Positions 6,949 to 59,529 are shown, numbered from the stretch's first letter. The stretch: 64,000 nt of DNA from Acidimicrobiia bacterium (GCA_965203555.1 CBDBCY010000004.1:1248001-1312000); one strand, 5' to 3'. The notes: generated from the sequence alone by a model not told the origin. A program made the numbers and translations.

Positions 6949-6976
6949 TGACACATGTGTAAGCTATCCTGACCTC
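6949..6976 (+). promoter_or_regulatory. PafBC-type promoter candidate TGACAC-N10-TATCCT-N6-ATG (leaderless)
   Basis: Read directly upstream of the methyltransferase ATG at 6977; the hexamer differs from TGTCAC at one position. Confidence 0.55.
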
Positions 6977-7894
6977 ATGGTCAGTGATTCTCTTCCAGCA
7001 CCTCCCCAGGGCAGAGAACGAGCCTTGGCCAAGCTGTTGCATAAAGGGGTCGTGTGGGGGGATTCCGCCGAATGGCTGCCCAGACTGCCGTCAAACTCGG
7101 TGGACCTCTTTTTCATGTCCCCTCCATACGCTGATGCCCGTTCTTATGCGCGGATTGCCCCCGAAAAATATGTCGAGTGGTTCTTGCCCTTCGGTGAAGC
7201 CATGCTCAAGGCTGCACGAGAGACCGGCTCCTTCGTCTTGAATATCAAAAACCGGGTGGCAAAAGCCGGTCCCCTCCGGGGCCAGCGCCACCCGTACGTG
7301 TATCAACTTGTACTGGAGTTGCAGAGACTGGGCTGGCGTTGGACCGAGACATACATTTGGCAGAAGCCAAATGCCATTCCCGGTCGGTTCGGACCCCGCA
7401 CCAAGGATGCTTTCGAGTACGTATACCACTTCAGCAAAGGAACAAAGCCCTACTTTGATCTGGACAGCGTGCGAGTCCCTTACAAGGCTGATCCGTCAGA
7501 GATTGCCCGGCGGGTCAAGGACGCCAACGGCCGGCGCAACACTGAAGCCGGGTTTGGCAGAGACCGCGCCCGAACCTACGGTTGTGGCGGCGCCGATCCG
7601 GGAAACGTGATCACGGTTGGTCAGACTTACAATCAGCACAGAGGGCCGGCGGGACTCCACACCGCAGTTATGCCGGAAGGACTGGCGGAGTTCTTCGTCA
7701 AAGCAATGTCTCCACCGGGCGGGGTGGTAATAGACCCATTCGCCGGTTCAGGCACCACCGTAGTTGTGGCGCGGCGCCATGGTCGCCGCTCAGGTGGGAT
7801 CGAATTGCATTCCGGATATGTGCAGGTGGCCCGAAATCGTATCGCGGAGGACCACTACACGGAAGAACAGGGATTGCTCTTTGTCGCTCACTGA
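6977..7894 (+). CDS. Orphan beta-class amino (N4-C/N6-A) DNA methyltransferase 1
   Basis: Motif IV FMSPPY precedes motif I DPFAGSGTT; also IWQKPN and HTAVMP. Start placed at ATG 6977 from promoter spacing. Confidence 0.9.
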   Translation: MVSDSLPAPPQGRERALAKLLHKGVVWGDSAEWLPRLPSNSVDLFFMSPPYADARSYARIAPEKYVEWFLPFGEAMLKAARETGSFVLNIKNRVAKAGPLRGQRHPYVYQLVLELQRLGWRWTETYIWQKPNAIPGRFGPRTKDAFEYVYHFSKGTKPYFDLDSVRVPYKADPSEIARRVKDANGRRNTEAGFGRDRARTYGCGGADPGNVITVGQTYNQHRGPAGLHTAVMPEGLAEFFVKAMSPPGGVVIDPFAGSGTTVVVARRHGRRSGGIELHSGYVQVARNRIAEDHYTEEQGLLFVAH

Positions 7895-7995
7895 TTCGGA
7901 GCGCCGACTGCTCTCGGTAGCGGGTACCACACCCAGTCCGACAATCAGGCGCCAAGCGGTGGACTAAGGCTTCGTAGCTCATCCTTTTTTGGGTG

Positions 7996-8130
7996 TCACA
8001 GATTAACTCCCCTGCCCTGGGCAGGGCTTTCATCGTATAAGTCCGCCATCTGGCGGACGGCTTCGAATTCATCCCGGGAGGGCGTGAAGATTTCGTTAAT
8101 GACCGGCACTTGCACCGGATGAATGGCACG
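7996..8130 (-). pseudogene. Remnant of the 3' part of a CitE/HpcH-family gene, paralogous to 8411-9247
   Basis: AIHPVQVPVINEIFTPSRDEFEA versus AIHPAQVPVINEVFTPSKDELEA in the intact neighbour. Confidence 0.85.
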
Positions 8131-8410
8131 AGCGGGAGGAGAAACCGCAGCAGTTGCGTAACCTGGGTGGATGCTCTCGGTCCGCTGATCAGGGTTCATC
8201 ACCAGAGGCATGCTCTACAGCCCCGCCCACGCGTTTACGGTCTTCGACGACTTTCTTCGGCACCACTTCTTACGGTGGAACAGCGAAGCGCCGCCTGATT
8301 GCAACCTCAGTCGACCCGCATCCCCAGATAGCAACGTATCGAGCCAGTTCTCACCGAATGGCCGGGACATCCCGGTACGCCGTCCCTCCGTGGGCGACAA
8401 CCCACGTTGA

Positions 8411-9247: not shown

Positions 9248-9276
9248 CGCCGGCGGCTTCGGCGAGTGTTTGGAGA

Positions 9277-10524: not shown

Positions 10525-10762
10525 ATTTCACCCGGCTAAGCCTAACCCCATCAATCTCGCCCTCTGCAACACCCGGATGAGGAGTCCGTGTTCTGGGTGT
10601 CTTCCTGTCCCGAGACCGTAACCGTTATGCCTACCGGTTCCTTGGTGGGATCTGTCCTCTGTCAAGATCGGCGTCTCGTTGCCAGGTCGGATTTGAGGTA
10701 TGGGGAAAAACCACAAAGAGGCGCCTTCCTACTCGGAATGACTTTTGCTGCATCCCCGGGTT

Positions 10763-10791
10763 TGTCACACCCCGGGGATATGGTTGGCCGC
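10763..10791 (+). promoter_or_regulatory. PafBC-type promoter candidate TGTCAC-ACCCCGGGGA-TATGGT-N7-GTG (leaderless)
   Basis: Exact N10 spacing; the GTG at 10792 is in frame with the methyltransferase. Confidence 0.7.
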
Positions 10792-11730
10792 GTGGACCTC
10801 AACACACAGTTGCCATCGCGCCGCCCCCTGTTCCGGACAGGCGAAAGCGGGCCGGCCCGCATCGGTTCGCACGTCACGATCAGCACGGACCTAGACCTTC
10901 CGACGGCTTCCTTGACCTATCCTTTGATCATGTGCGGTCGTGCGACCGACGCCTTGAGTCTTCTGCCGACCGGTAGCGTGCAGACGGTCGTGACCTCTCC
11001 TCCGTACTGGTCGTTGCGGGACTACGACGTTTCCCAGCAAATCGGTTGCGATGACGGACTGGGAGAGTACGTCGAGAGCATCGTCACGGCCTTCGACCAG
11101 ATTCGGCGCGTTCTCACTGATGACGGCACCGTCTGGCTCAACGTCGGAGACAGTTACACCTCGGGCAACCGGAAGTACCGCGCCCCGGATCGCAGGAACC
11201 GGGCAAGAGCGATGTCGGTGCGCCCTCCTACTCCGGTTGGACTGAAGCCGAAGGATCTGATCGGCGTTCCGTGGCGGCTTGCCTTCGCTCTCCAGGATGC
11301 CGGGTGGTGGCTGAGGTCCGAAGTGATCTGGTATAAGCCCAATGCGCATCCCGAGTCGGTACGTGACCGGCCCACGAAGGCTCACGAGACTGTGTTTCTG
11401 TTGTCGAAGAATCAGGACTACTTCTACGACGTCTCGGCCGTGACGGGACCGAACGGCCGTCGGCTGCGGACGATGTGGGACATCAATACCGAGCCCAGGT
11501 CTCGGAAGGCGGGGGGGATTGATGACCACCCTGCGGTCATGCCAATGACCCTGGCTCGTCGGTGCATCCGGATCACCAGTCGCCCCGGTGATGTGGTCCT
11601 CGATCCTTACGCCGGGTCCGGGACGACGCTCGTGGCAGCCAGGGAACTCCACAGGAACTGGGTCGGCATCGAACTGAAGCCCGAGTATGTGGATCTTATA
11701 GAACGCAGGATTGCCACGGCAACCACCTGA
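10792..11730 (+). CDS. Orphan beta-class amino DNA methyltransferase 2
   Basis: VTSPPY, WLNVGDSY, KPKDLIGVPWRLAFALQ..GW.LRSEVIWYKPN.PESVRDRPT.AHE, HPAVMP, DPYAGSGTT. Start inferred from the promoter. Confidence 0.9.
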   Translation: MDLNTQLPSRRPLFRTGESGPARIGSHVTISTDLDLPTASLTYPLIMCGRATDALSLLPTGSVQTVVTSPPYWSLRDYDVSQQIGCDDGLGEYVESIVTAFDQIRRVLTDDGTVWLNVGDSYTSGNRKYRAPDRRNRARAMSVRPPTPVGLKPKDLIGVPWRLAFALQDAGWWLRSEVIWYKPNAHPESVRDRPTKAHETVFLLSKNQDYFYDVSAVTGPNGRRLRTMWDINTEPRSRKAGGIDDHPAVMPMTLARRCIRITSRPGDVVLDPYAGSGTTLVAARELHRNWVGIELKPEYVDLIERRIATATT

Positions 11731-11894
11731 GGACCATCGACGAACTCAAGGACCGAATCGAGTCTCTTTCGCCGATGGCCGTCCGGCTCGTCGCACGTCT
11801 GACCTGCATGGGAACAGACATACCACACCCATAGGGCGAGCCTCTGCGTAAGCCCCTCGGCGAGACGCGAAGATCCTCCGAGGCAGACTCCCGG

Positions 11895-13190: not shown

Positions 13191-13323
13191 GATGATCATC
13201 CTCCTTTGGCATTGCGGGTTTGGCTGCTTGAACTGCGCGCCGGTAATCGTCACCTTCGGGGTAAAGCCCAGATGATGCAACGACTCTTCGACACATTAAA
13301 GGAAAGTGTGCTCGATTTCAAGT

Positions 13324-14544: not shown

Positions 14545-14572
14545 TGTCACACCCCCTGTGCATACTGTACAC
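14545..14572 (+). promoter_or_regulatory. PafBC-type promoter candidate TGTCAC-ACCCCCTGTG-CATACT-N6-ATG (leaderless)
   Basis: N10 spacing; ATG at 14573 lies 6 nt after the -10 box. Confidence 0.7.
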
Positions 14573-15796
14573 ATGAAACAAGCAGTCAACAGCCGGCGGT
14601 CCGCCAACCTGGCCAAGCTCCTGTCACCCTCTCTGCCGGTCGTAGAGGCGTCGGTTGAAGAACTGAAACAGCGAATCCAGTCCACCATCCGCGTCCAGAA
14701 CCAAGTGGCGGCGGTCCGCGCCCAGGCGGTGTCGGAGTTGCGCCGCCGCCAGGGGGCGGAGAAGGTGGAGACGATTTTGCGGGAGGACGGTCTGTTGGGC
14801 CGTCGGAAGGCCCGGTCGGAGGTGGAGACCGCCCGGGGGTTGGAGGAGCTGCCCAAAACCCGGGAAGGGTTACGCAAGGGAGAGATCTCTGCTGACAACG
14901 CGCGTATCCTGGCGGGCGCCAACCAGAGGGGAACCATCGTCGAGGACGAGTTGTTGGACGGGGCCCGTTCCCAGTCTCCTGACAAGTTCGCCCGCATGGT
15001 ACGCAAACACGAACAGGCCCGTGCCCAAGATGATGGTGTGTCGAAGTTGGAGCATCAGCGCTCCCGCCGGTTCGCCAAGCTCACCACCGACCAAGACGAC
15101 GGAATGACCGTCCTTTATGGGCGTTTCGACCCGGTCACCGGCGCCCGGGTCGAAACGGCGGTGTCTCACATGATGAAACAACTATGGCACCAAGAAGACC
15201 CCACCGATCGGGCTACTGCGGGTCAGCGGATGGCCGACGCCATAGCCGAACTGGTCACCCGCCAAGGCAAAGACAAGAACGGTGGTTCCCAGGGCGTGAG
15301 GTTGTTGTTGATCGCCGACTACGACACGGTCAGCCAACAGTTGGGCAACCCTCGCCTCGAGAACGGAACCCCCCTCCCCGCCCAGACCCTGCGCCAGTTG
15401 GCCTGCGACGCTCAGATCCTGCCCGCCATGTTCTCGGGTTCGTCGGTGCCGCTGGATTTGGGACGGGCGCGGCGGACGGCCAGCGGTTCCCAGCGGGCCG
15501 CGCTGGTCGCCCGGGACAAACACTGTGTGGGTTGCGGCGCCAAAGCCTCCTGGTGCCAGGCCCACCACATCGTCCACTGGCAAGACGGGGGTCCCACCAA
15601 CCTGGACAACATGTGTCTTCTGTGCAGCAAATGCCACCACAAAGTCCACGACAATGACTGGCAGGTTGAACGCACTACAACCGGCGCCTACCGGCTCCGC
15701 CCACCACCCACCCAATGGGGACGCCCACCCCGACCTAAGTACCGGAACCGCCGACGCCAACCCACGCGCCGACGCCCGATCAAACAGAGAAAATGA
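14573..15796 (+). CDS. DUF222 / HNH endonuclease protein (REP13E12-like family)
   Basis: QRMADAIAEL, LACDA, PLDLGR..R, QRAALVARDKHCVGC...CQAHHIVHWQDGGPTNLDN..LLCSKCHHKVH. Confidence 0.92.
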   Translation: MKQAVNSRRSANLAKLLSPSLPVVEASVEELKQRIQSTIRVQNQVAAVRAQAVSELRRRQGAEKVETILREDGLLGRRKARSEVETARGLEELPKTREGLRKGEISADNARILAGANQRGTIVEDELLDGARSQSPDKFARMVRKHEQARAQDDGVSKLEHQRSRRFAKLTTDQDDGMTVLYGRFDPVTGARVETAVSHMMKQLWHQEDPTDRATAGQRMADAIAELVTRQGKDKNGGSQGVRLLLIADYDTVSQQLGNPRLENGTPLPAQTLRQLACDAQILPAMFSGSSVPLDLGRARRTASGSQRAALVARDKHCVGCGAKASWCQAHHIVHWQDGGPTNLDNMCLLCSKCHHKVHDNDWQVERTTTGAYRLRPPPTQWGRPPRPKYRNRRRQPTRRRPIKQRK

Positions 15797-16835: not shown

Positions 16836-17513
16836 TCAGGGCGAGCAACGCCTTTCAGAAGCGTAACCGGATAGCCTTTCCCAACTTCCGCTGTCCTTCA
16901 TTGTGAAATTGGGGGGCGCCGTGCGGCGGGCAATGGCTACGGCGTTGCAACTCAAACATTTCGCCACGTACCTCATCTCCTGTGGGTCGATGCCCGCCTT
17001 CTGCTCGAAGGGAGTCAGCCGATGTCCCAGTTGCCGCGACTGTTCAGTCAAATAGTCCGGGACCGGGCTGGGGACTCGGGCGGGGGCGGTGTCGGGTGTG
17101 CGCCCGGGAACGCGGATGCGGCGCACCTTTCCCGTCGAGGTTCCCGCCGTTGGACGCCGCTCAGAAGGCTTGGTCCGGGATCTGGCAGGCGATTCCGTGA
17201 GCGCTTCCGACGGCGCCGGCGCCACCGATGAATGCCCGCTCGACTCTACAGGCGCCGCAGTCGGTTGCTCATCCGGCTCTGTGGTGGCCAAGGGCAGAGA
17301 CGGAGGAGCAGGGGCAGGCGCTTCGGTCCTTTTCTGTCCTACTCCGCGACGCAGCCGGGAAAAGACCCTCTTGACCCGCCGACGGTCGGGCCTTTCGGTG
17401 TCTTTTCGGAGGCGTTCCCCTCTTCTTGCCTTCTTCCCGAATGGGAGAATGCCCTGCTCCAATTCCTCGGGGGTGGGGACATCAAAGTCGGGAGTGGCGT
17501 CTCGTCGACTCAT
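16836..17513 (-). CDS. Hypothetical protein: Pro/Arg-rich low-complexity region plus a C-terminal putative Zn-binding module (H...CxxC...C)
   Basis: ATG at 17513 overlaps the Hsp70 stop (ATGA); C-terminus GHRL...AKCLSCNA...ERRC. Confidence 0.7.
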   Translation of the reverse strand: MSRRDATPDFDVPTPEELEQGILPFGKKARRGERLRKDTERPDRRRVKRVFSRLRRGVGQKRTEAPAPAPPSLPLATTEPDEQPTAAPVESSGHSSVAPAPSEALTESPARSRTKPSERRPTAGTSTGKVRRIRVPGRTPDTAPARVPSPVPDYLTEQSRQLGHRLTPFEQKAGIDPQEMRYVAKCLSCNAVAIARRTAPPNFTMKDSGSWERLSGYASERRCSP

Positions 17514-18847
17514 GTCCAAATCTCCTGTGCGACCACTCCCAAACCTTTGGCGACGGTTGTGAACGGTTCCCGGTCACGTATCTTGTCTGCTCCGAAAACC
17601 CGTTCCAGCATCGCTGCAAAGGAGAACAAACGCGATGAGCCTCCGGTGCGGAACACCGCCGTGACCTGGTCCGGGCCTATTCCCACTCTGTCCAACGCTT
17701 TGAGCATCTGATTTCGGATAGTACGCAGGTAGGGCTCGGTTAGCCGGTCGAGGTCGGTTCTGTTCAGTGGTATCGACAAGTCTCCCTGTGGAGGATGAAA
17801 CTCGATGGAGGTCATCGACCTCTCCGACAGTCTGATCTTCGCCCTCTCTATGGCCTTGTGAAACGGATGCGCCTGGCCCCCTCTCACAATGGCGTCCACC
17901 AGTGCGCCGGAACGCGGATTCAACTTTCTCAGTTGATTGAGGACATAGAAAGTGTGCCTGTTGGTCATCAAACCCCGGAAGCCGCTCCAACTGCCCAGGC
18001 TGTCTCTGAACCAGGTCGGTATGGACGGGTGGTCAAGCCCCAGTGAGGGCGCCACCTTGTCACGGAAGATCAACTGGTCGAAGATCGAACCTCCTATTCT
18101 GGCGCCTTCCATGCTCACCACCTCTCCCTCCTGACCGTCGACCTCCACCACCGCTATGTCGAACGTCCCTCCCCCGAAGTCGACAGCTACCGCGTAACCG
18201 TCCGGAATCACCGTATCGAGAGCGGCGGCGGCCGGCTCCGGATACAACTCCACCTCTGAGAATCCGGCTTCGTGTGCGGCCTCCTTCAGCCTGTCCTCCG
18301 CCAGTTGCTGCAGTTCTTCGAAGTCTTCCTCGGCGGTCCCGAAAAAGGCCACCGGATGTCCTATAACCACTCTGGTCACGTCCTGACCGGTTAACCGATC
18401 AGCGCGGCGTTTCAAATCTCTGATACCGATGGAGGCCAGTTGCTCCATGGTGAAGTCGATCGACCACGAATGGGTACTGCGGAAGAGATCGTTGGCGAAT
18501 TCGCTCTTGAGTTCACCCATCAGTCGTGAATCGAGACAACCTCCCCCGCGCTCGTACTGGCGGCAGTCACTACCCCACTTCCAACCCCTTCGACCATGTC
18601 TCTCCCGGACCACCAGAGCACAGTGCTCGCAACTGGTGCGCTGGTCACCGGTGATCGTGAACTGCTCCACCGCCCGGTCTCCCGCCATTCGAAGGCCATC
18701 TCGATGCAGATAGGTAATTGAAGGGACCGAGTTGGGCATGCCCGCGTCGATACCCAACCGCAACACCTCCACCCGGTGGGGATAGGCCACAGAGATGGAA
18801 CTGTTGGTCGTACCGTAGTCGATACCGTAAGCGAGAGGACTGTTCAC
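17510..18847 (-). CDS. Hsp70-family ATPase (YegD-like, nucleotide-binding domain only) with a Cys-rich insertion
   Basis: GIDYGTTNS, VIGHPV.F, PEPAAAA, VDFGGGTFDI, IGGSIFD, IERAKIRLS, TGGSS, VAKGL; 445 aa, no peptide-binding domain. Confidence 0.9.
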   Translation of the reverse strand: MNSPLAYGIDYGTTNSSISVAYPHRVEVLRLGIDAGMPNSVPSITYLHRDGLRMAGDRAVEQFTITGDQRTSCEHCALVVRERHGRRGWKWGSDCRQYERGGGCLDSRLMGELKSEFANDLFRSTHSWSIDFTMEQLASIGIRDLKRRADRLTGQDVTRVVIGHPVAFFGTAEEDFEELQQLAEDRLKEAAHEAGFSEVELYPEPAAAALDTVIPDGYAVAVDFGGGTFDIAVVEVDGQEGEVVSMEGARIGGSIFDQLIFRDKVAPSLGLDHPSIPTWFRDSLGSWSGFRGLMTNRHTFYVLNQLRKLNPRSGALVDAIVRGGQAHPFHKAIERAKIRLSERSMTSIEFHPPQGDLSIPLNRTDLDRLTEPYLRTIRNQMLKALDRVGIGPDQVTAVFRTGGSSRLFSFAAMLERVFGADKIRDREPFTTVAKGLGVVAQEIWT

Positions 18848-21800
18848 TCCCCGACCACCAATGCCGCTGCCAGCAATCGAATGGAGAGGTCCGATGCTCT
18901 GCTTTCGATGTCCTGCACTCTGTGTCGCCGATCCTCTTCCAGTCCTGCCAGACGCCTTCGGTTCTTCGCCAACATGCCGCGCCGGGCCGGCAACACTCTC
19001 CTTTCCTGGGACGTACCGGTCTTTTCCTTCTCATCGATCCAAGCCCTCTCATCCCTGATCCTGTTCATCAAGCGAACCTTCTGATAGGTGTACATGCGCT
19101 CGGTTCTCTCCAATTCCTCCCGGCGCCATTTCTCTTGCAGTTCGAATACATGTTGGTCAGCCTCCAGCCTCTTGTCCGCGATCTTGCTCGCGCTTACATC
19201 GAAAGCCGCGCCCAGCCACTCGGGCGTTTCTCCCTCCATCCAGGCACCTCCCACCTGGGGCATCTCGGTAACCACTTCCTCTTCCACAGTCAGGTTTTTG
19301 CTCACCAGATGACGCACGAATACGCCGAAACGAGCCGGACCCTCGCCCTCCAGTGCATAGAACACTTCCAAGTAGGGACCTCCTTGCACTCCGCTGACCC
19401 GGCGGTGGCAGGCCAAAGGGCTGTGGGACTCCAATGGCATGCTCACTATTGCGTCGATCAGCCCGTGCCCGAAAGCAAAGAAGTCGAGATCCTCACGTTC
19501 CAGAGCCAATCGATAGTCGAAAACCCCTCGGTAAGACCGTTTGTCCCGTTTCAGGCGCCGCTGCAGCCCACCGGAGAGATAGATGCCAACCCCGCCCTTC
19601 TCATGATCCGTCATGTTTCCTCCGTAATACCGAAGAGTCATCCCCACATGGTTCGCCAGGTCGGAGAACTCAGCCATAACGCGTTTTTCCACCAATCGAT
19701 TGGCATGGTCTCTCCGGAAAGTGGACGGGTCCAGGGCAAAATATCTTCTTTCCTTTTCCAGCCTCCGAGACTCTTTGACTTTCTGCTCCCACTCCGAGGC
19801 GATGGCCTGGAAATCTTCCCGGCGATTCCCAGCTTTGCTCAATGCCATACGCTCGATCTCCTTACTTACATCGCCCAGAATGGGATCCAGCGGACCCACC
19901 GACTCCTCGAAGAGACCGATCCGATCCTCCAACACCTCCAGAATCCGCTCTTCCACTGTCCCCTGGCAGGCAAAGTTGTAGATCACCACCTCTCTTTTCT
20001 GGCCGATGCGGTCCAAGCGTCCGATCCGTTGCTCGACCTTCATCGGATTCCAAGGCAGGTCGTAGTTGAACATCACATGAGCGAACTGGAAGTTGCGTCC
20101 CTCCCCGCCAGCTTCGGTGGAGATCATGATCTGCGACCTGTCTCGGAATCGCCGCACAGTCTCGTCCTTGTGCTCCTGGCTCATGACACCGTTGAATATC
20201 TCCACTCCATATCCCTGGCTCTCGAGTGTCGCCTTCAAGAATGTCTGAGTGTCGAGAAACTGGGTGAAAACGAGGATCTTCTGATCCGGCTCTATCTCGT
20301 CTCGGAGAATACGCAGGAATTCTCTCGCTTTGGAGTCGCGAATCTTCCCCAGCCGGAACACAAGTTGTTCCAGCCGATCAATCTCAGCCCGCAGTTCCTC
20401 AGCCAATCCGGCGCGGGTTTCATGGTGATAGCGGTCTGCAACCGCGCTGAGTTCCCTGGGATCGGTCCAGTCATCGAGATCATCCTCGGTAGGACGGTTG
20501 TTTCCCCAGTCCGAGGCGGGCGACCCGAGCTTCTCGCGTAGTTTGGCGATGCGTTTGAGCAGGGCGCCGCGAATGGCGTTGGAACTGGAAGCCAGCATCT
20601 TCTGGTAGCTGACCATCACAAACCCAACCGCCTTGCGATCTTCTCTTTGCGCCAGGTCGTACTCGTCCCGGATGTAGTTGTTTACATCCTGATATATCCC
20701 GATCTCCTCGGGGAGCATTTCCACCCGCACCACTTGAGGACGGCGTTTGGTGAATCCTCCCACCTCGGACTTGCGGTTCCGGACCAGCGTCCTGCTAAGT
20801 GGGAACTCCCGCGACAAGTCTTCCAGGGCCCGTTCCCGGTGTTCTCTCCTGTCCAAGTCCAGGTCTTCCCCGCTCGGCAGTTGGATTTTGACGAACGACT
20901 GCGTTTCCCCTCGGTCAGAGGCGTTCACCTTCTCCCACTCCTGCAAGCACTTGGCTACCTTGGTGAGGTCGGGCAGCCATTGCCTGGCCGCCTCGTACTG
21001 TTCAAAGGACTCGAACAGACCGGGTTCCACCAACTCGATCAGGGAATACAGCTCAAATGGGTGGAGTTGCATCGGAGTGGCAGTGAGAAGCAACAGACCG
21101 TAGACTGTCTCCTTCAGTTCATCTGCCAGGCGATAGGCCTGGGTAGTAACTATCTTCTTGGTGCTCGGGAGGCTGCGGCGCACCTTGTGGGCCTCATCGA
21201 AAATCGCCATGTCCCAGCCTGCCTCCAGTATCTGCTGTGCCCGGTCGTTCCGCCGGGCCGTGTTCAAAGAACAGATGACATTGTCGTAAAGCCGCCACGG
21301 ATTCTCTCCACGTTTCTCCAAAGACTTGATCAAAGGACCATCCAAGACCTGGAATTCCTCGTTGAACTTGGAACTGAGTTCTTGACGCCACTGCCACTGG
21401 AGTGACGGAGGCACCACGATCAGCGCCCGCTCAACCATCTGCCGGGCGCGCAGTTCCTTGAGGATCATTCCGGCTTCTATGGTCTTGCCCAGCCCCACTT
21501 CGTCGGCCAAGATCATGCGGGGCCGGGTTTTGGAAAGCACTCGAAGGGCAGTCATCACCTGGTGGAAGGCCGGCTCGATGCGGGCGCTGGACAATCCAGC
21601 CATATCGTCGTAGCGGTAAGCGTGCTGCAGGTAGAGCGCCTGTATGGCAAGCCCGTATACCTCGGCTCTGCCGAGATCGTTCCGCAGCAGAGCCTGTTGC
21701 GGGTTTTCCGACACAGGTTGTAATGCTGTGCCATCCAGATAGAGGGTGCCGGTGGCAAAAGAAACCTCGTAGCCGAGGGGACTGCCGGCGCCAACAACCA

Positions 21801-21873
21801 CGCCTGTTTCTCCCCCGGCGACTCTCATCACCCGATCACCCACATGGAAGGTTTTCGACTCCGGTTTTGTCAT
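18844..21873 (-). CDS. SNF2-family helicase/translocase with RapA/HepA-like architecture
   Basis: LADEVGLGKTIEAG, QWRQEL, DEAH, LLTATP, LVFTQF, STEAGGEGRNFQ, YDLPWNPMKVEQRIGRLDRIGQ. Start taken as ATG 21873. Confidence 0.93.
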   Translation of the reverse strand: MTKPESKTFHVGDRVMRVAGGETGVVVGAGSPLGYEVSFATGTLYLDGTALQPVSENPQQALLRNDLGRAEVYGLAIQALYLQHAYRYDDMAGLSSARIEPAFHQVMTALRVLSKTRPRMILADEVGLGKTIEAGMILKELRARQMVERALIVVPPSLQWQWRQELSSKFNEEFQVLDGPLIKSLEKRGENPWRLYDNVICSLNTARRNDRAQQILEAGWDMAIFDEAHKVRRSLPSTKKIVTTQAYRLADELKETVYGLLLLTATPMQLHPFELYSLIELVEPGLFESFEQYEAARQWLPDLTKVAKCLQEWEKVNASDRGETQSFVKIQLPSGEDLDLDRREHRERALEDLSREFPLSRTLVRNRKSEVGGFTKRRPQVVRVEMLPEEIGIYQDVNNYIRDEYDLAQREDRKAVGFVMVSYQKMLASSSNAIRGALLKRIAKLREKLGSPASDWGNNRPTEDDLDDWTDPRELSAVADRYHHETRAGLAEELRAEIDRLEQLVFRLGKIRDSKAREFLRILRDEIEPDQKILVFTQFLDTQTFLKATLESQGYGVEIFNGVMSQEHKDETVRRFRDRSQIMISTEAGGEGRNFQFAHVMFNYDLPWNPMKVEQRIGRLDRIGQKREVVIYNFACQGTVEERILEVLEDRIGLFEESVGPLDPILGDVSKEIERMALSKAGNRREDFQAIASEWEQKVKESRRLEKERRYFALDPSTFRRDHANRLVEKRVMAEFSDLANHVGMTLRYYGGNMTDHEKGGVGIYLSGGLQRRLKRDKRSYRGVFDYRLALEREDLDFFAFGHGLIDAIVSMPLESHSPLACHRRVSGVQGGPYLEVFYALEGEGPARFGVFVRHLVSKNLTVEEEVVTEMPQVGGAWMEGETPEWLGAAFDVSASKIADKRLEADQHVFELQEKWRREELERTERMYTYQKVRLMNRIRDERAWIDEKEKTGTSQERRVLPARRGMLAKNRRRLAGLEEDRRHRVQDIESRASDLSIRLLAAALVVGE

Positions 21874-21884
21874 TTGGTATCGCG

Positions 21885-21907
21885 AGGTTACAACGACAGG
21901 TGTGACA
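21885..21907 (-). promoter_or_regulatory. PafBC-type promoter candidate TGTCAC-ACCTGTCGTTG-TAACCT (N11)
   Basis: TGTCACACC core as in the other copies; the -10 box lies 11 nt upstream of ATG 21873. Confidence 0.55.
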
Positions 21908-21990
21908 CTTGAGGACGGCCGCCCTGTCATCGGGCAGTTCTCGCCGTCGAATTTGCCTGCTCTACAGAGGGATCTCCCGCCCGGGTTCTA

Positions 21991-32877: not shown

Positions 32878-35800
32878 CTACCTTCGTGGTAGGTGGTGGC
32901 GGGTTTCGAGGAGTGGCACTTCCCAGTGGTCCTTTTGGATGAGGTGGCGGTATTCCTCTTTGCTGTCGTCTTTGGTGCGGGACACCATGGCGAGCACGGT
33001 GGTGGCATCACTTCTCGTGTCTCCCCGGGTCTGTCTCCACTGGCGTGCTGCCTCCTTTGAAAGCAGCGCTAGGTCTCTGCCCTTGGTGTCGCGCACGACT
33101 ACCGACCTTGTTCCGTTTGCAGTCAATGTGACTCTGCTGCCGGTGGCAATGTCGGATAACGCTTGGTGGATGGGGTGATCGGGCGGTTGGTTTCCGGCAT
33201 AGCTGAGATAGATACCCTCCAGCCCAAGCTGGGTGTAGCTGGTGCGGACTCGCTCTGCTTCATCGTGTGCAAACGTCCATGGCCGCTGGGCTACTTCGGG
33301 CCCTTGGATTTCGTTGATGTAGGGGAGTTGGTCGTCTTGGCGGTTGATGATTGTCAATGTGCTCATGGCCCTGGTCATGGCCACATAGAACAGACGCCTT
33401 TCTGCTTTTTTCAGTTCTGCTTCCTTGTCGTGGCGGTTGAGAGACTGGCGCCAATCGCCACCTAGGACTATGACATGGGGGAACTCTTTCCCCTTGGCAG
33501 CATGAACGGTTGCGACTAGCACCCCTTCCCCGATGAGATGTTCCCTCTTTGCCACGGCGAGTTGGTCGTGGATTGCTCTGGTCAGGTAGGTTCGCGGGCA
33601 GGGCTCTTCCCCCACGTCTTGTCCGATCTCGGCGAGGATGCGGTCGGCCATGACGGTCCAGAATGACTTCGCTCCGCAGATTGCGGCGAGGTGCCGTCTG
33701 ATCGTCGGTACTGCTATGTCTGAAATAGTTAGGTCCTCTAGATGGTCGAGTAGCCGACGGAACTCTCTGATTCTCTGTAGACGCGGCATCCCCTCGGGAA
33801 CAGGTCTTCTTATACGTATGCCGTTCCGTTCCAAATAGCCCCGGGTTGCGTTGGCCTCTTCCCAGGTCCGCGCCAAGACCGCGAAGTCGGTCCAGTCGGT
33901 TGCCTGGTGGAGTTTTCTGACCCTCTCGATGTATGCCGTGACCGCGGCGTCCGCTGCTAAACCGTCTTCTACATCCAGAAGGAGAACTTTTCCTCGGAGG
34001 ACAGGGTTCAACCTCTCCCAGTCGCCGCCCGCCGGGCGGTTTCGCCGGGCGTGGTTGATCCTGATGGCGCGGTGCTCTTTCATCCTTCCCCGGTTGTTTT
34101 CAATCAGACGGTTGGCTGTGTTGATGATGTTGGTGGTTGACCGGTAGTTTTCAACAAGGTATCGAATCTGGGCATTGAAGTCGCTTTTGTAGCGTTGAAT
34201 GAACTCTGTGTTGGCTCCTCTCCATTCGTAGATGGCCTGGTCGTCGTCTCCCACCGCCAGGATCGTGGCGTACCTGTCTTCGTCTCTGCCCGCTTTTCGG
34301 GCGATGTGGGTGAGCATCTCGTACTGGTCTTCGTCGATGTCTTGGTACTCGTCGACCAGGACGTGCTCGTATCCGGCCAATAGCCGGTCGCGGAGGTCGT
34401 CCGCCGCAACTCCTTCTATGTTTTCGTCACCCTGTAGCCGCCGATTGGCCGCTCGGATCATCTCCTTGAAGAATTTTTCAATGGTCTGGTCTTCTCTCGC
34501 TTTCCGTTCCTTGGAGATTCCTTGGTCTTCTTTCGCTTTCCGTTCCTCAACCAGGGAGCGTTCACAGATTCTGAGAGCCAGCGAGTGGTAGGTGTGGATC
34601 GCCACCTGCCGGGCCAAGTCTCCCACCAGGGCCCTGATTCGTGAACGCAACTCGTACATGGCGGTCCGGTTGTAGCAAATCACGAGGATCCGTTCGGGCC
34701 GGATACGTTCCACTTGGAGCAGATAGGCACAGCGGTGGACGACTACCCGCGTCTTCCCGGATCCGGGACCCGCCAGCACGAGCAGGTTGTCGTCTCTGCG
34801 CGCGGTGACGATTCGTTGTTGGGCGGCGTTATGCAGATTGTCGACAATTTCCTCATAGCGTTCCCGCGAAGTGGGCAGCTTGACGGTGGCAGCGTTTGGA
34901 AAGTACTGCCGGCGGAACCTGGATTGGGGCATGCCGAAATAGCTGTTTACCAACTCCTGGCTTGCTCCCGCTCTGCCGTTCGTTGCTTCTTCCACGTAAC
35001 GGCCTATGGCGTGAACTTGGAACTCTCGAGCTTTGTAATGGTCGGCGAGTGGTTTGTAGTCCTTTTCCGAGTAGCGGCGGTTCCTGGCCTCGTCCAGCAT
35101 TTTGATGGTCATGGCTTGGCGGAACAGCGACAACCCGTGCTCCAGGCGTATAGTGTCGTGCTCGTCCAAGAAGAGCAGCGTCTTCTCCAGTGCTGTGAAC
35201 CTGTCGCTTATCTCTGAGGAGAGTTGTAAATGATCTTCGAGTGCCCTGCCCATGTCGTCCAGGGAGAACAGGATGAGTCGCTCGCCTCTTTCGGCAACTT
35301 TGGCCATCTCGTTGAGGATTACCCTGCCTACCTCGGTTCGGAGATCAAGTTGACGGCGCAGGTCCGGCCAATTGGAGTGCAGCCCCACATGGATGGACCC
35401 GTAGCCGCTGCTTTTGAGAGCGACAGTTTCGCCGAAACCCTTGCGTTCCCATCCCCTGAGGAGCTTCAGCAGCCCTTCGTTCAGCAGGCTTCTCTTCCTC
35501 TCCCGTAGTCGTGTCTGCAGGCCCGCCAGTGTCACTTCCGCCTCCCCGTTCTGGATCAGGTCGGGATAATGCTGCTCCAATACCTCGCACAGATCAGTCT
35601 GTGCTTCATGTACCCGTTCGAGCCTGGCTTTGGAATGGTCGGTCGTTTGGTGGCGGAACCAGGCGGAGAAGTGGACTCCCCGTTTGAGCACTCCGGCCTC
35701 TCCCATGTGGAAAAGCATGCGGATAATCTCCCGATTGGCTGCTTCATTGACCAGCCGGGGGTTACCGTTGTAGCGGCGTTTCAGAGAGGCGAACAGGGAC

Positions 35801-38205: not shown

Positions 38206-38227
38206 ACCATGCTTCTGGCCTGCGACA
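38206..38227 (-). promoter_or_regulatory. Weaker PafBC-type promoter candidate TGTCGC-N10-CATGGT
   Basis: Same spacing as the other copies. It abuts ATG 38205, so if real the true start is a downstream GTG/ATG after GGAGAGG. Confidence 0.4.
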
Positions 38228-39986: not shown

Positions 39987-40062
39987 GTCCCCCATTTTAA
40001 GGCAGGCACAGCCCGAACCGCTGGTGATGGCTAACACCATTTGAGGGCAATCCCGACTCAAC

Positions 40063-40127
40063 GAAGAAACGGCCCCGGCTTCTACCGGGGCCGTCGGCCT
40101 CGGACTACTCGCCCGAGGGGGGTACAC
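40063..40127 (-). ncRNA. Candidate ~65-nt two-hairpin small RNA (alternatively only the terminator of the upstream SDR)
   Basis: Promoter TGTCAC-N10-TATCGT at 40154-40133; then CCCCCC, hairpin CCTCGGGC-GAGTA-GTCCGAGG, and terminator ACGGCCCCGG-TAGAAG-CCGGGGCCGT-TTCTT. Confidence 0.45.
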
Positions 40128-40335
40128 CGGTGACGATAACACGGTACTGTGACATCCTTCAAGTATCGTGGTGATTCTTGTGATAAACGGGGAGCGGGTT
40201 GTCAGTTACATCGATGGATACAACCTAATACCACTTTCACGATATCCCAAAGGGTGATCCGGTCTAGTCGACTGCCTGATCCCGTTATAACGTCATCAGG
40301 GAAGAACTCAACGCTCCGACCGGCTGGCTTCCGAC

Positions 40336-43591: not shown

Positions 43592-43845
43592 ACCAGGGTC
43601 TGGTCGGCCAGGTGCATGAGCCTTGGCGTGGATCGCTAAAAAAGGAGCCAGTGCAGTGTGTTCTTCGTCACAGGTGTGGCCCATATTGGAAGGGTCGAAC
43701 ACCTCTCGGTCCGGTCCGACGTCGCCAGTCCGCCCAAAGACCCATTTTGGAGGTCAGAGGTCATATCTCAAAACTAAATATCTGCCCTTTCGGATCCAGG
43801 ATTACAGATTCTTTTAGCGCTTTTTGTAGTGGTTAGAGGTAGTTT

Positions 43846-44134
43846 TATCACACCCCCCTGGCATACTCAGTGGGTAATGGGACTGAAAAACACCCACAGC
43901 CGGTCATCAACCGGGAGCAGGGTGGCTGCCAGGAATCAAGCACGGTTCGTGCCGCCTGCCCTGCCGGTCAAAGAGACTTCGCTTTCCGACTTGAAAGAAC
44001 AGATCCGCTCTGCCAGCCGAGTGAAAGCCCAAGCCGAAGCCCTCCGAGCCCGCGCCGCGGCCGAGTTCGCCAAAAGAGCAGGAGACAGCCTGGCGGAAAA
44101 GACTCTCCGGGAACTCCTGATCCAAGTGAGTTGA
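43846..44134 (+). pseudogene. Truncated DUF222-HNH gene (N-terminus only) with its promoter TATCAC-N10-CATACT
   Basis: PALPVKETSLSDLKEQIRSASRVKAQAEALRARAAAEF...EKTLRE aligns with PSLPVVEASVEELKQRIQSTIRVQNQVAAVRAQAVSEL...ETILRE of 14573-15796. Confidence 0.8.
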
Positions 44135-44182
44135 CTCCACGAAACCGGGTGATCATCAGACTGCAAGGCAGTCGTCTTGGTT

Positions 44183-47100
44183 CTATTCTTGGGAGCCTTT
44201 GGTGATCATCACCAGTGTTGGCAGGCCGAATAGGACGAAGAAGCCGGACATGATGAGTCCGCCGACAATGCTGACCGCCAGGGGGACGAGGACGGTAAGT
44301 CCTTCGCTGCGTTCGTAGAGCAGGGGCAGCAAGCCAAGTAGTGTGGTGGCGCTGGTGAGGAACACTGCCCTGAAGCGTTGGTTGGCGGCCCAGGCCAGGG
44401 CAGCGATTGCGGGTATGTCCTTGGCGCGTCGGATTTTGCCGTAGCGATCCAGCAACACCAGTACGTCGTTGACTACTACACCCGAGACGCCGATGATCCC
44501 GAAGATGGACAGTCCCGTTAGGTCCCAGCCGAGTATCCAGTGGCCTAGGATCGCGCCGGCTGCTGCTAGCGGGATTCCGGCTGCGGCGGCTAGTGGTTTC
44601 CAGTAGCTACGGAGGAAGGCCGCCATGAGTGCGTACATGGCGATGAGCATGATCGGGATTACTAGGGCCCAGTTTCTGAACAGATTCTGTTCGGCTTTCC
44701 ACCCACTGGACGTGTCGAGGATTAGACCTGGGTATTTGTCGAGCAAAGCTGGAAAGACCTCGTCTGAAAGGTACCTGCGGGCTTGGATCGGTGTCGTTAT
44801 TGCCTCATCCACGTTGGCGGAGACCAGCGCTGCCTGTTTGCCGTCTGCCCGGATTAGCTCTTTCAACTCCCGTGTTTCGCTGAGGGTGGCGACGGCGTTG
44901 ATCGGCACATCGCCGCCGGTGGCGCCAGGCAGGCGGATACGTTCGCTTGCCAATTCGTGTAAGCTCCGTCGCCTTTCCTCGGGGTAGCGCAGGATCACCT
45001 TTAGCTCTTCTTGGCCTCGCTGGATTCGCTGCACCTCCGTGCCGTAGAAACTGTTTCGCAGGTGCGTCCCGATCGCGATGGGCGTCAATCCGGCCGCGTA
45101 TCCTGCGGGGGTTAGATCGATTTCCAGGTGCCGTTTGCCCGGAGACATACTGTCATTGAGTTCGTAGGCGCCGGGCACGGCGGCAATGGCGGTCCCTAGT
45201 TCTGTCGCTGCCTGCTTTAGCGCTTGTTGGTTATCGTGCTTTAGCAATACAGCAATGTCGGCAAGGACACGGACACGCGAACTCCGGTACCGCATCGTTT
45301 CGACTCCGGCGAGGCTACCAACGGCATTACGCCATTCCCGCTCGATCTCCTGGAGCGACGCTCTACGAATAGGCCGCGGATGCAGTTTCAGGACCACGGA
45401 AGCCAGATGGCTGCCGTTGGGTGATGTTACGTCGAAGATCGACTCTGCGATGTTGCCTGCCAGGACCCTGACCGACCGGACCGTGTTCCCGCCTAGTCGG
45501 TCGTCGACAACGTACGCTGCGTCGACCACCCGCTCCACAGCTTCCAGTGTGTTCTCGAACGGCGACCCGACCGGAAGAAGCATGTTGACCTGGATGTCGT
45601 CTGTAATACTGTCCTGTTCGTCGAAGATGAGAACCCGGACGGTGTCGGTTGCCACCAGCGACACCGCCAGGACCAACACCAGCAGGGCACCGGTCAAGGT
45701 CAGCCACATGTGCCGCATCGACCATGTAACCGCTGGGGCGACGGTCTTGTCGCGTACCTTGTCCAGCCAGGCGCTTACCCGTTGTTGGATGCCCTTGAGT
45801 GGCCAACGACTCCATTCCTTACCGTGAGATAGATGCGCCGGCAGTATTAGGAATGCCTCGAGCAACGAGACAGCGAGCACGAAGACCGTGACATAGAAGA
45901 AGGGACGGAGCGTCTCGTAGTACCCAACTCCGAACAGCATCGGCACGAAAGCGAGCATCGTGGTCAGGACGCCGACAGTGACCGGACCGACCACCGACCT
46001 GGCACCCGAAATAGCCGCGCTGACAGCGCTCTTGCCCATCGCGCGTTCTGAGGCAATGCTCTCGCCCACTACCAGAGCGTCATCTACAACAAGGCCGATC
46101 ATTAGGAAGAAGCCGAAGATCGTGAAGATGTTCAAACTCATGTCGGCCAGACCGAAGAACGACATAGCACCAATGAAGGACACCGGGATACCTGCGGTTA
46201 TCCATACCGCCACTCGTAGGTCGAACACCAGAATCAGCAACAAGAACACCAAAAGCAATCCGATAGCGGCGTTACGCATGATGTCAGTGATGCGATCGAC
46301 CGCGGGTTCGGCCTGATCGCTCCAGATGCTGACTTCGATATTGGGAGGGGGTTCGTAGCTATCCAGCCAGTTCCTCACATGGCCGGCGATGTCGGATATC
46401 GACGTTCCCTCCAACGAGTTGACACGCACGAACACCGCTGGTTTGCCGTCAAGGGTGCTGACGATGTTCTCATCAGCGAATCCATCGCTGATATCGGCTA
46501 CGTCACCTAACCTTACGATGGCGCCGGCCGGTCTTGTGAGGAGCGGTATGTCCGCGAATTCCTCACCCACGGTGCGCTTGCCCAGGGTATGCAAGACGAT
46601 TTCCCCGGAGTCGGTGCGCAGTTGCCCGAAACTCAGGTTTACGGAGTCTCGTCTCAAAACCCCGGCCACTTGGGAGAAACTGAGATCGTGGCGGCGAAGT
46701 GCCTCCTCGCTCAACTCGATAGTTACCTCACGATCACGGGCTCCACGTAAGGTGACTTGTGGGAGAGACGGAAACTGCTGTAACTGCGAACGGATCTGCT
46801 CCGCTGCGGACCTCAAGTGGTCTTCGGATGCATGCGAAGACGCCACCGCCACAGTGATGACCTCATCCTTGGGCTGGACAAACTCTACCTCTGGTCTCTC
46901 AGCATTGGGCGGGGGAAAGGCTTCCACCCTGCCCAGAGCATCATGAACGTTTTCCATCACCGTTTCACGGTTCACGAATGTCTTGAGCTCGAGGGTGGTC
47001 ACGCCCAAGCCTTGAACCGCGGTCGTCTGGACCCGGTCGATACCCTCCAACCCGATGAAGGCCTCCTCTAAGCGCCGATTAATGTCCTCGTTCACTTCCG

Positions 47101-54928: not shown

Positions 54929-55002
54929 CGCTCTCCCATCTCTGTTTAATTGTCCCCGCCCAATATAGAGCGCCGCCTCCCCTGAAGTCGGCCAAGAGGG
55001 AC

Positions 55003-57025: not shown

Positions 57026-57097
57026 GTCGATCCTCCAATAGGATTATCACGGCAAGATAGTCGAATAGGCTAGGAGAAAGTTGAACAAGGAGAGTTG

Positions 57098-58501
57098 GTG
57101 AGCACCACATTGATCCAGGGAGGACGGGTTGTAACCGCCACCCGGGACCAGGTAGAGGACATTCTCATCGAGAACGGCAGGATCGCCAGGGTGGGAAGCC
57201 TCAACGATTTTCCGGCCGACCGGGTGGTGGACGCCTCCGGAAAGCTGGTCATCCCCGGAGGTATCGACCCGCATACGCACATGGACACTCCGGCCGGCGG
57301 CACCGTAATCTCCGATGACTTCTACACGGGCACCGCGGCGGCCGCGGTGGGAGGGACCACCACCATCATCGACTTTGCCATCCAGAAGCAGGGCGACGAC
57401 CCCCGTGTGTCGCTGGAGGAGTGGTTCGGCAAGTCGGAGGGAAAGGCCGCCGTCGACTGGGCCTTCCACCAGATCATCACCGACCTGCCGGAGTCCTACA
57501 TGCCCTCCCTTGCAGGGCTGATGGATGAGGGAGTGGCCAGCTTCAAGTTGTTCATGGCCTATCCCAACGCCTGGATGCTGGATGACGGCACGATCTTCCG
57601 GGCGCTGCAGTGGACGGCCGACAGCGGTGGACTGATCATGCTCCATTGCGAGAACGGTCCCGCCATCGAAGTGCTCATCCAGCAGGCGCTGGCCGCCGGG
57701 CAGACGGCGCCCCGCTATCACGCCGCGACCCGACCCTCCATCGCCGAGGGAGAGGCCACGTCCCGCGCCGTCGCCCTGGCCGAGATCGCCGGGGTCCCGG
57801 TGTACGTGGTGCATCTGTCGGCGTCGGAGGCCCTGAGCGCCGTCGGGCAGGCCCGTCATCGGGAATTGCCGGTCTATGCCGAGACCTGCCCCCAATACCT
57901 GCTCCTGTCCGACGACATGCTGGCCTCGCCGGGGTTCCACGGCTCCAAGTACGTCATCTCCCCACCGCTTCGGCCCGCTACCCATCACGAGAAGCTGTGG
58001 CAGGGGCTGGCCTCGGGCGACCTGCAGATGGTCGCCACCGACCACGCTCCGTTCCATTACAAGGGACAGAAAGAGATGGGAAGGGGGGACTTCACCAAGA
58101 TTCCCAACGGGATGCCGGGAGTTGAATGGAGAGTGAGCCTGCTCTACCACTTCGGGGTGCGGGCGAACCGGATCTCCCTCAACCGGTGGGTGGAGATCAC
58201 CTCCACCAACGCCGCCAAACTGTTCGGCCTCTATCCGCAAAAGGGCGAGATCGCGCCGGGATCCGACGGGGACCTGGTGATCTTCGATCCCGAGCGGGAG
58301 CACACCCTTTCCGCCGAGACCCAGGTGACCAACTGCGACTACAACCCGTACGAAGGCTGGGTGCTGCAGGGCGCCCCCGACACGGTGTTGGTGCGCGGCG
58401 AGCCGGTGGTCTCGGACGGAAAGTTCGTGGGCCGGGCCGGCATGGGCCGGTTCATCAAACGCCGCCCTTCCGAGACCATCGCCACCGATCTGATTACCTG
58501 A
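57098..58501 (+). CDS. hydA: Dihydropyrimidinase/D-hydantoinase, paralog 2
   Basis: Same metal-binding motifs as 42185-43591, with long identical stretches. Confidence 0.93.
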   Translation: MSTTLIQGGRVVTATRDQVEDILIENGRIARVGSLNDFPADRVVDASGKLVIPGGIDPHTHMDTPAGGTVISDDFYTGTAAAAVGGTTTIIDFAIQKQGDDPRVSLEEWFGKSEGKAAVDWAFHQIITDLPESYMPSLAGLMDEGVASFKLFMAYPNAWMLDDGTIFRALQWTADSGGLIMLHCENGPAIEVLIQQALAAGQTAPRYHAATRPSIAEGEATSRAVALAEIAGVPVYVVHLSASEALSAVGQARHRELPVYAETCPQYLLLSDDMLASPGFHGSKYVISPPLRPATHHEKLWQGLASGDLQMVATDHAPFHYKGQKEMGRGDFTKIPNGMPGVEWRVSLLYHFGVRANRISLNRWVEITSTNAAKLFGLYPQKGEIAPGSDGDLVIFDPEREHTLSAETQVTNCDYNPYEGWVLQGAPDTVLVRGEPVVSDGKFVGRAGMGRFIKRRPSETIATDLIT

Positions 58502-58518
58502 CCTGGGGGTTGAAAGAG

Positions 58519-59363
58519 ATGACCACCGTCCGAACCGCACTGATCCAGATGACCACCGTCTATGACAAAGAGGCCAACACCGCCAAGGGAGAGCGACTGG
58601 TGCGCCAGGCCGCCGACCGGGGAGCGCAGATCGTCTGTTTGCAGGAACTGTTCAACACCATCTATTTCCCCTTCGAGATGGATCCCCGCCACCTCGAGCT
58701 GGCCGAGCCCATCCCCGTCCCACCACCGAACGGATGCAGGAGGTCGCCCGCCAGACCGGGGTGGTGCTGGTCGCCCCCATCTACGAAAAAACCATCGAAG
58801 GGATGCTGTTCAACACCGCCCCGGTGATAGGCACCGACGGGGAATTGCTGGGCATCTACCGCAAGAGCCACATTCCACTGGTGAGCACTCCCACCCTGAC
58901 CGGGATCGAGAAGTACTACTTCGCACCCGGCGACACCGGGTTCGTCACCTTCGACACTCCCTTCGGCATCAAGTTCTGCGTCTACATCTGCTACGACCGC
59001 CACTTCCCCGAAGGCGTGAGGGCATTCGCCCTGCAGGGCGCCCAGTTGATGGTGGTCCCCACCGCCACCACCGGGATGAGCCGCTACCTGTGGGAGTTGG
59101 AACTGCGCGCCCACGCGGTGGACAACATAATGTACGTGGGCGGCGTCAACCGCGTCGGTGTCGACCAGGGCGGATCGGACTCGCACTTCTACGGATCATC
59201 GGTGTGGGTCGACCCGAAGGGACAGATCATCAGCCAGGCCGGCGACCAGGACGACGAGGTGCTCATCGCCGACCTCGACTTTTCCGTGGTCCCACAGATC
59301 CGCAACGAGTGGGGATTCTTCCGTGACCGCCGCCCCGACCTGTACGGAGCGGTCGCCACCTGA
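58519..59363 (+). pseudogene. Nitrilase-superfamily C-N hydrolase (beta-ureidopropionase/N-carbamoylase-like) with a single-base frameshift near 58717
   Basis: Frame 1 gives MTTVRTALIQ...CLQELF...LAEPIP; frame 2 gives PTTERMQ...YRKSHIP...ICYDRHFPE...FFRDRRPDLY. Restoring one G gives EPIPGPTT. May be a sequencing error. Confidence 0.8.
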
Positions 59364-59507
59364 GCCAGTGTCTGGAGGCGGATACGCAGTTGGATGAGGC
59401 TGCGACCAAGCCCTTCCTGGCTTCACTCCCACGGCAAGGCAGTGGCCTCTTTTCAATCGGTCCGTCCACGGAGTTGTGAAGAAAACCACCACGCGGGGAT
59501 TGACTCT

Positions 59508-59529
59508 TGTCACACCCGTGGTTCACGTT
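59508..59529 (+). promoter_or_regulatory. Orphan PafBC-type promoter candidate TGTCAC-ACCCGTGGTT-CACGTT
   Basis: TGTCACACCC core with N10 spacing; no convincing ORF downstream. Confidence 0.4.

Follow-up and report, generated by a model that had tools for sequence, protein, structure and literature searches.

Within a 64-kb stretch of an Acidimicrobiia genome (C4:1248001-1312000 of a 3.42-Mb assembly with 62% G+C; hereafter the window), a motif of the form TGTCAC(ACC)-N10-(T/C)AnnnT, in which N10 stands for any ten nucleotides, most probably represents this genome's PafBC-dependent (RecA-NDp) promoter, with members at positions 10763, 14545, 40154 and 59508. As judged from sequence, the promoter class appears to be real, strongly supported and ordinary in kind, and everything about it that can be addressed at this level fits the published description of PafBC promoters. 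We assign it to the PafBC-type -26/-10 class because the upstream hexamer (the box) stands before recA and other repair genes, because the recA box is conserved among relatives, and because the genome carries a pafA-pafB-pafC cluster in which the arginines that read the GTC triplet are conserved. An initial annotation had listed eight copies in the window as one PafBC-like, LexA-independent DNA damage regulon. All eight strings were found at their positions and on their strands, five of them followed by ACC(C) as described, and the core idea is supported by the boxes at recA, lhr, an adnAB-like pair and dnaB as well as by pafB-pafC and their arginines. As a single class, about half of the list stands (10763, 14545, 40154 and 59508); the site at 43846 is a relic, 38227 is unsupported, 6949 is of another type and 21907 is plausible only. 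The statement that all copies are intergenic essentially holds: those at 6949 and 10763 lie inside the longest open reading frames (ORFs), yet upstream of start codons located 6-7 nt past the -10 box.

The exact motif TGTCAC-N10-YAnnnT occurred four times in the window (10763+, 14545+, 40154- and 59508+) versus 0.45 expected, a count reached in none of 100 shuffles, while the form with one mismatch occurred 20 times versus 14.5 expected and was matched in 8 of 100 shuffles. As a class, one-mismatch and N11 sites in the window are not above chance, so that 6949, 21907 (N11), 38227 and 43846 are unacceptable on pattern alone. The four exact matches and the RNA candidate that follows one of them are:

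10763..10784, plus strand: TGTCAC-N10-TATGGT, PafBC-type promoter of the solitary DNA methylase 2 (gene 10792-11730), exact match
14545..14566, plus strand: TGTCAC-N10-CATACT, PafBC-type promoter of a DUF222-HNH gene (14573-15796), exact match
40133..40154, minus strand: TGTCAC-N10-TATCGT promoter with a weak -35-like TTGAAG, exact match
about 40058-40126, minus strand: two-hairpin RNA candidate of about 68 nt ending at an intrinsic terminator, from fold and terminator
59500..59529, plus strand: TTGACT -35 box (59500-59505) plus TGTCAC-N10-CACGTT, heading a multi-copy RNA-like element (about 59536-59750), exact match

Counted on both strands of the 3.42 Mb, TGTCAC followed by YAnnnT showed a sharp preference for one spacing, with 82 occurrences at N10 compared with 7-33 at the other spacings between 6 and 14; the reversed hexamer GTGACA, used as a control, gave 8-27 genome-wide. 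Outside deep coding sequence the numbers were 67 at N10 versus 3-26 elsewhere, the 26 at N12 being a by-product of CATACTGT in the DUF222 copies, that is, of one repeat family. TGTCAC was also found 16 times at N11, against 3-10 at spacings 7-9 and 13, and the variants TGTCCC (30 versus 4-12) and TGTCTC (17 versus 4-10) likewise peaked at N10. The mycobacterial form TGTCGG had no N10 peak genome-wide, and neither did TGACAC (6 versus 0-4), TATCAC (1) or TGTCGC (14 versus 2-15) outside deep coding sequence. The hexamer is mostly followed by A and often then by CC, and at many sites a start codon lies 5-9 nt past the -10 box, which suggests leaderless transcripts.

The genes that carry the box are the strongest argument for what reads it. 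At recA, TTTGTCAC-N10-TAGCTT lies 34 nt upstream of the start, with an SOS box about 77 nt further upstream of it; lexA is present and has three SOS boxes of its own. A box of the form TGTC[AG][CT]-N10-TAnnnT was kept at recA in all 28 relatives with a usable 5' flank (16 congeners and 12 members of other genera; 27 of 27 when the unpublished genome G021 is excluded), one further locus being cut at a contig end and one genome yielding no locus. Outside the genus the recA hexamer was TGTCAC in eight cases, TGTCGC in three and TGTCAT in one. The box also heads lhr, coding for a 1,474-aa Lhr helicase (kept in 21 of 27 loci), a pair of AdnA/AdnB-like genes with UvrD and PD-(D/E)XK domains (224 nt before the start of the longest ORF), and genes for an RNase T-type exonuclease, RmuC, DnaB, GyrB (at N11) and TnpB, as well as two SNF2 helicases, three DNA methylases and the DUF222-HNH genes. 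One of the SNF2 helicases is HmaA-like and retains the box in six of seven loci, the seventh reading CGTCAC; at cas3g the box was not conserved, being present in one of three loci (one of two without G021). PADLOC models recovered on box-bearing genes were HmaA (1,328 bits), Cas3g (810 bits), ZacA, an LmuB-like ATPase, a PD-Lambda-5_B-type methylase, PDC-M41B (DUF5131) and PDC-S48 (an exonuclease). As a separate observation, recA of G018, G028, G021 and G020 (L087-L090) sits in open frames of 632-816 aa, and in G018, G021 and G028 the match is split near residue 200, consistent with inteins.

Among N10 and N11 sites outside deep coding sequence with a called gene within 120 nt (n = 28), 16 precede a gene acting on DNA, compared with 10 of 40 randomly drawn first genes of transcription units (Fisher p = 0.011). 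Six of these 10 control genes are transposases, and without transposase-type genes the proportions become 15 of 28 and 4 of 40 (p = 2e-4); the functional classes in both comparisons were set by hand after viewing the Pfam tables and not blind.

Since about 35 of the 82 exact sites come from two repeat families, the 26 DUF222 copies and an RNA-like family with about 8-10, part of the N10 peak reflects copy number and not independent recruitment. Taken to its limit, this would make the motif nothing but the inherited promoter of amplified selfish DNA (DUF222-HNH genes and RNA-like elements), with the single-copy matches arising by chance, and the nearly identical spacers of the DUF222 copies are in keeping with that view. 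We consider it very improbable: after collapse of repeats the N10 excess persists, with 43 clusters that have a downstream ORF and 7 sites that do not, against 8 and 2 at N9 and 15 at N11; the single-copy genes recA, lhr and that of the HmaA-like helicase have orthologs that still carry the box although their flanks have diverged; and the orthologs of methylase 2 retain TGTCAC despite different spacers.

A candidate reader is encoded in the canonical place. The search for pafBC or WYL genes called for by the initial annotation returned only two WYL ORFs in the genome, which are adjacent and start 13 nt after pafA (TIGR03686, 505 bits; the locus is cut at its 5' end). The first, with WYL and WCX domains, could be aligned with PafB of M. 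smegmatis (7p5x_AY, E = 4e-12) as well as with the PafB half of the Arthrobacter PafBC structure (6sj9). The second combines HTH_PafC, WYL and WCX domains, and its alignments are with PafC of M. smegmatis and the PafC half of 6sj9. Relatives of this PafB at 77-82% identity occur in metagenome-assembled genomes labelled Acidimicrobiia or bacterium. In mycobacteria the PafBC motif is given as tGTCgg(N10)tA(N3)T, of which GTC alone is strictly conserved among actinobacterial recA promoters, the triplet is read by PafB R46 and R50, and the element lies at -23 to -28 in promoters without a -35 box (PMC8635444). Counterparts of both arginines are conserved here (arRtfeRDK opposite fsRmfeRDK of 7p5x_AY), and by eye nothing resembling TTGACA was seen 17 nt upstream of the -10 box at recA, lhr, methylase 2 or DUF222. 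Likenesses to the mycobacterial system (M. smegmatis, M. tuberculosis) are the GTC hexamer ten nucleotides from TAnnnT, the pafB-pafC genes behind pafA, a regulon with recA, adnAB, dnaB, a DNA methylase and transposase/TnpB-type genes, and the coexistence of an SOS box at recA, which is the mycobacterial two-signal layout.

The two systems differ in the consensus past GTC, which is ACACC here and GGTG there, and in the host, here an uncultured member of the Acidimicrobiia outside the Mycobacteriales. This difference at positions 5-9, together with the fact that NCBIfam names neither WYL ORF and that both show little identity to PafB and PafC of known structure (E = 1e-8 to 1e-18), with PafBC binding only predicted, would fit a different regulator or sigma accessory factor reading TGTCAC at -26, the likeness to RecA-NDp then being convergent. 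Such a reader seems unlikely to us, as the geometry of hexamer, N10 and -10 box is the same and GTC is conserved, the context at recA with an SOS box upstream is the same, and pafBC stands in its canonical position with the only WYL domains found. Moreover, in M. tuberculosis TGTCAC is a working PafBC box, the motif there tolerating both TGTCAG and TGTCAC (PMC8151990). Because that paper lists TGTCAC-N10-TAnnnT for M. tuberculosis, TGTCAC is not an innovation of the present lineage, as had been supposed, but an already accepted variant of a motif in which only GTC is strict (PMC8635444); neither the mechanism nor this form of the box is new.

By analogy with mycobacteria, a PafB-PafC heterodimer activated by single-stranded DNA would be placed between sigma region 4 and the DNA, at promoters in which an ordinary sigma-A -10 box is paired with a -26 element and a -35 box is mostly missing. 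As PafB would read GTC, we propose that damage to DNA leads the housekeeping polymerase to initiate transcription there; binding by PafBC, damage induction and transcript starts 6-7 nt after the -10 box are what the sequence analysis predicts.

Several observations weigh against the PafBC assignment or limit its reach. Besides the share of the peak that comes from repeats, the lhr box reads TGCCAC in three congeners (G002, G005 and G012; L241, L242 and L244), breaking the supposedly strict GTC. The RNA-family promoters have a good -35 box, unlike described PafBC promoters. Of the repair genes before which the motif had been anticipated, recA and the adnAB-like pair have it, and none stands immediately in front of uvrD, ruvC or ssb, the latter two appearing to sit within operons; several boxes are followed by genes of metabolism or of other functions (a LuxR regulator, an IMPDH-like gene, an aminotransferase and an acyl-CoA synthetase ORF). 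The gene calls come from a crude home-made ORF model (2,831 ORFs covering 85% of the genome), and the regulon list, built with regular expressions and this caller, is neither complete nor clean. DNA runs in which 30-48% of sampled words were found carry coral, sponge and marine metagenome labels. Contigs of one metatranscriptome run (X7, 0.07 of sampled words) fell on parts of methylase 2 and DUF222; they show the presence of these parts and not starts, strand or level, DNA carry-over being possible, and a second run (X9) gave a single partial piece.

At the level of individual sites, the promoter at 10763 is solid. The methylase it heads belongs to the N6_N4_Mtase family and has a GTG start 7 nt past the -10 box, from which its transcript is probably leaderless. 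In all four full-length same-genus orthologs TGTCAC lies at the same distance from the leaderless start, although spacer and flanks differ, and the -10 box fits YAnnnT in three of the four (TGAGGT in the fourth). Beside this, contigs of a close relative, from a coral metagenome and its metatranscriptome, skip 262 nt (10651-10912), a segment in which both the promoter and the start codon of methylase 2 lie.

The site at 14545 is equally solid. The ORF behind it (14558-15796) matches DUF222 (2e-23) and HNH (4e-8), its ATG at 14573 lies 6 nt past the -10 box, and all 26 full-length DUF222-HNH paralogs in the genome, at 47-95% amino acid identity to the window copy, carry TGTCAC-N10-YAnnnT. We take Rv1128c and Rv1148c of M. 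tuberculosis to be genes of the related 13E12 family. Both are PafBC candidates in Table S7 of PMC8151990, where Ssb, DnaB, XthA, Ogt and resolvase/transposase pairs also stand among the matches listed; in Table S5 of the same paper two 13E12/HNH genes are marked 'SOS box', whereas here the box is found on all 26 copies. The family thus resembles REP13E12/DUF222-HNH elements in its Pfam DUF222 and HNH domains, multiple copies and damage-type promoters, and differs from them in comprising 26 full-length genes in 3.4 Mb, many leaderless, with one subfamily followed by a convergent small transcription unit. This second unit, TTG..TGTC[TC]C-N10-CATATT and then ..ACAAACATG..GCGGTCCGGATCGCC..TCATCAGAT, has copies at G000:C1:43826(-), C2:76691(-), C4:420571(-), 637758(+), 731429(+), 833532(+) and 1966873(+); it lies 309-413 nt from the nearest DUF222 gene end and on the opposite strand in seven of nine copies, as if part of the repeat unit.

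Also solid, as a promoter, is 40154, whose box was kept in both syntenic same-genus loci. As had been noted, a terminator separates it from the acyl-CoA synthetase gene; this is a 12-bp GC hairpin with a U tract (fold z = -4.4) and forms the second hairpin of the 68-nt RNA. The RNA recurs at five further distinct same-genus loci (seven in total) behind other -10-type promoters without the box, and one of its stems shows a compensatory exchange of C-G to U-A.

The site at 59508 is solid but unusual, since it has an added canonical -35 box with an 18-nt spacer. It heads a family of 17 signature copies genome-wide (for example G000:C4:1843457, 2445481 and 3058395), and all 17, chosen by RNA signature alone, have [TC]GTCNC located 10-11 nt before a CAYRYT -10 box, with a clear TTGAnn -35 in 15 including 59508. 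The signature was found 1-15 times per genome in 16 of 16 congeners, whereas 14 genomes from other genera had 0-4 each (reversed control, 0-1), and several copies lie 44-475 nt from DUF222 genes. This undescribed element of about 200 nt opens with a conserved 5' hairpin (GGUCCG..CCGACGUCG..CGGACC) and closes with a tail that reads TTTCGCG..TTTCGCG; it also contains inserted hairpins, which vary, and a block rich in G (GGUGGCGGCGGGGGAGGG). RNAalifold found one well-kept hairpin, GGUCCG...CGGACC, with changes on both sides of one pair in 2 of 19 rows, or alternatively a long-range pairing with the G-rich 3' part, the covariation being too thin to settle the structure. Rfam returned no family for the whole window at gathering threshold and only two chance-level matches on 59450-59850 at E up to 10; the window contains no tRNA genes.

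The remaining features of the window are:

6949..6970, plus strand: TGACAC promoter of the solitary DNA methylase 1 (gene 6977-7894), conserved leaderless type with a different upstream box
21885..21907, minus strand: box of the TGTCACACC type, spacing 11, upstream of the SNF2 operon, sequence match
16836-21873, minus strand, operon behind the 21907 box: SNF2 helicase (18844-21873), Hsp70-like ATPase (17510-18847) and a 227-aa ORF (16836-17519)
38206..38227, minus strand: TGTCGC-N10-CATGGT before a 1,775-aa DEAD and UvrD helicase (32878-38205), one mismatch
43666..43687, plus strand: CGTCAC-N10-CATATT of a second, shortened copy of the RNA-like family (43694-43830), absent from the earlier list, from a one-mismatch scan and family alignment
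43846..43867, plus strand: decayed DUF222-type promoter (TATCAC) before a DUF222 gene remnant, sharing 22 of 26 nt with the promoter at 14545

The last of these is a dead relic: its GTC is mutated to ATC and the 5' coding part is 65% identical over 112 nt, while the gene remnant gave no match at the protein level and 43829-44205 none to Pfam. For 38227, 21907 and 6949, the resemblance to the class is somewhat more probably coincidental than not, the promoters then being ordinary or differently regulated. Such a view agrees with the chance-level number of one-mismatch sites in the window and with the absence of an N10 peak for TGACAC and TGTCGC. It agrees further with the orthologs, which lack the boxes at two of the sites: at 38227 the closest ortholog (84% identity) reads CATCGC and none of ten more distant copies has a box there, and at 21907 the box is absent from two same-genus orthologs (62-66% identity) and one order-level relative. 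On the other hand, the 21907 box conforms to TGTCACACC, the extended consensus, and is 11 nt away from the start codon of the helicase that follows it, TGTCGC is the recA hexamer in three order-level relatives, and the GAC of 6949 retains both guanines said to be contacted by PafB (PMC8635444; its extension to GAC is our own). We therefore regard 21907 as plausible but unconserved and 38227 as unsupported, probably a chance match.

The promoter at 6949 appears to be a real, conserved leaderless promoter of another type. It reads TGACAC, never TGTCAC, in all four copies including that of the window, which have unrelated flanks, and AATGACACAGGTGTAAGCTAnnCT is kept in three same-genus orthologs. 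TGACAC overlaps an ACAC-N2-GTGT inverted repeat that is conserved in all four copies and stands between TGACAC and the -10 box (6949-6976). In this genome the repeat is a palindrome without mismatch over 10 bp, and it may serve as an operator or as a target of the enzyme itself, through which the methylase would regulate its own gene. Neither methylase has an adjacent restriction nuclease gene, their flanks being metabolic (CoA-transferase and aldolase; acyl-CoA dehydrogenase and isocitrate lyase), and PADLOC gave only methylase models for them. The proposed recruitment of orphan methyltransferases into the regulon has a precedent in Rv3263, a 'DNA methylase' flagged as PafBC_candidate in Table S7 (PMC8151990). 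That the motif marks every DNA-acting unit of the window was too strong a claim, given the different box of methylase 1 and the absence of the 38227 and SNF2 boxes from orthologs.

Two observations concern the helicase genes themselves. The SNF2 operon (16836-21930, minus strand), found in 2 of 16 congeners, encodes the SNF2 helicase, whose best PADLOC models are BrxHI and DrmD, an Hsp70/MreB-like ATPase and a 227-aa ORF without family, and is not a named PADLOC defence system. The 1,775-aa protein encoded by 32878-38205 (minus strand) joins a DpdF-like DEAD helicase to a helicase of GajB/UvrD-like type, with copies of 40-84% identity in 9 of 16 congeners and up to three matches per genome.

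Three features reach beyond the known picture and are as yet unproven: how far the HNH genes have been amplified, the defence-type genes, and RNA families with promoters in which a -35 is combined with a PafBC-type box. A further difference from the mycobacterial system is that the box is carried here by defence-like genes (HmaA-like, ZacA-like, LmuB-like and Cas3g) and by multi-copy RNA-like genes that have a -35 as well. The nearest described WYL activator driving both repair and defence is DdaA of Moraxellaceae, a damage-responsive activator of repair and restriction-modification/CRISPR genes; its promoter geometry is different. DdaA, a homodimer, attaches some 50 bp ahead of the start with no sigma adaptation, and it replaces SOS, while LexA and SOS boxes are present here (PMC12392091). 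DriD of Caulobacter is, as described, likewise a WYL activator that senses single-stranded DNA in an SOS-independent damage response, but a homodimer of a different clade with a different kind of site. A literature search pairing 'PafBC' with 'Acidimicrobiia', most subscription journals lying outside it, found no paper.

A broader possibility, which we put forward tentatively and hold to be rather doubtful, is that in this sponge- and coral-associated genus PafBC acts as a general 'single-stranded DNA alarm' for repair genes, defence modules, the HNH family and structured RNAs. Its targets would be recA, lhr and adnAB together with the HmaA-like helicase, the solitary methylases, the ZacA-like protein, the Lamassu-like ATPase and Cas3g, and would also include the 26-copy selfish HNH family and the genus-wide RNAs of about 200 nt in which GTCNC is laid over a -35/-10 promoter. 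If true, actinobacteria would have an equivalent of the network in which DdaA links repair and immunity, and riboregulators would be a new output of it. The PafBC assignment itself would extend the mycobacterial regulon to an uncultured marine class and provide a promoter rule that can be used to annotate genes inducible by damage in these symbiont genomes, in which accessory genes such as the HNH elements, a solitary methylase, the HmaA-like helicase and small RNAs would ride on the damage signal.

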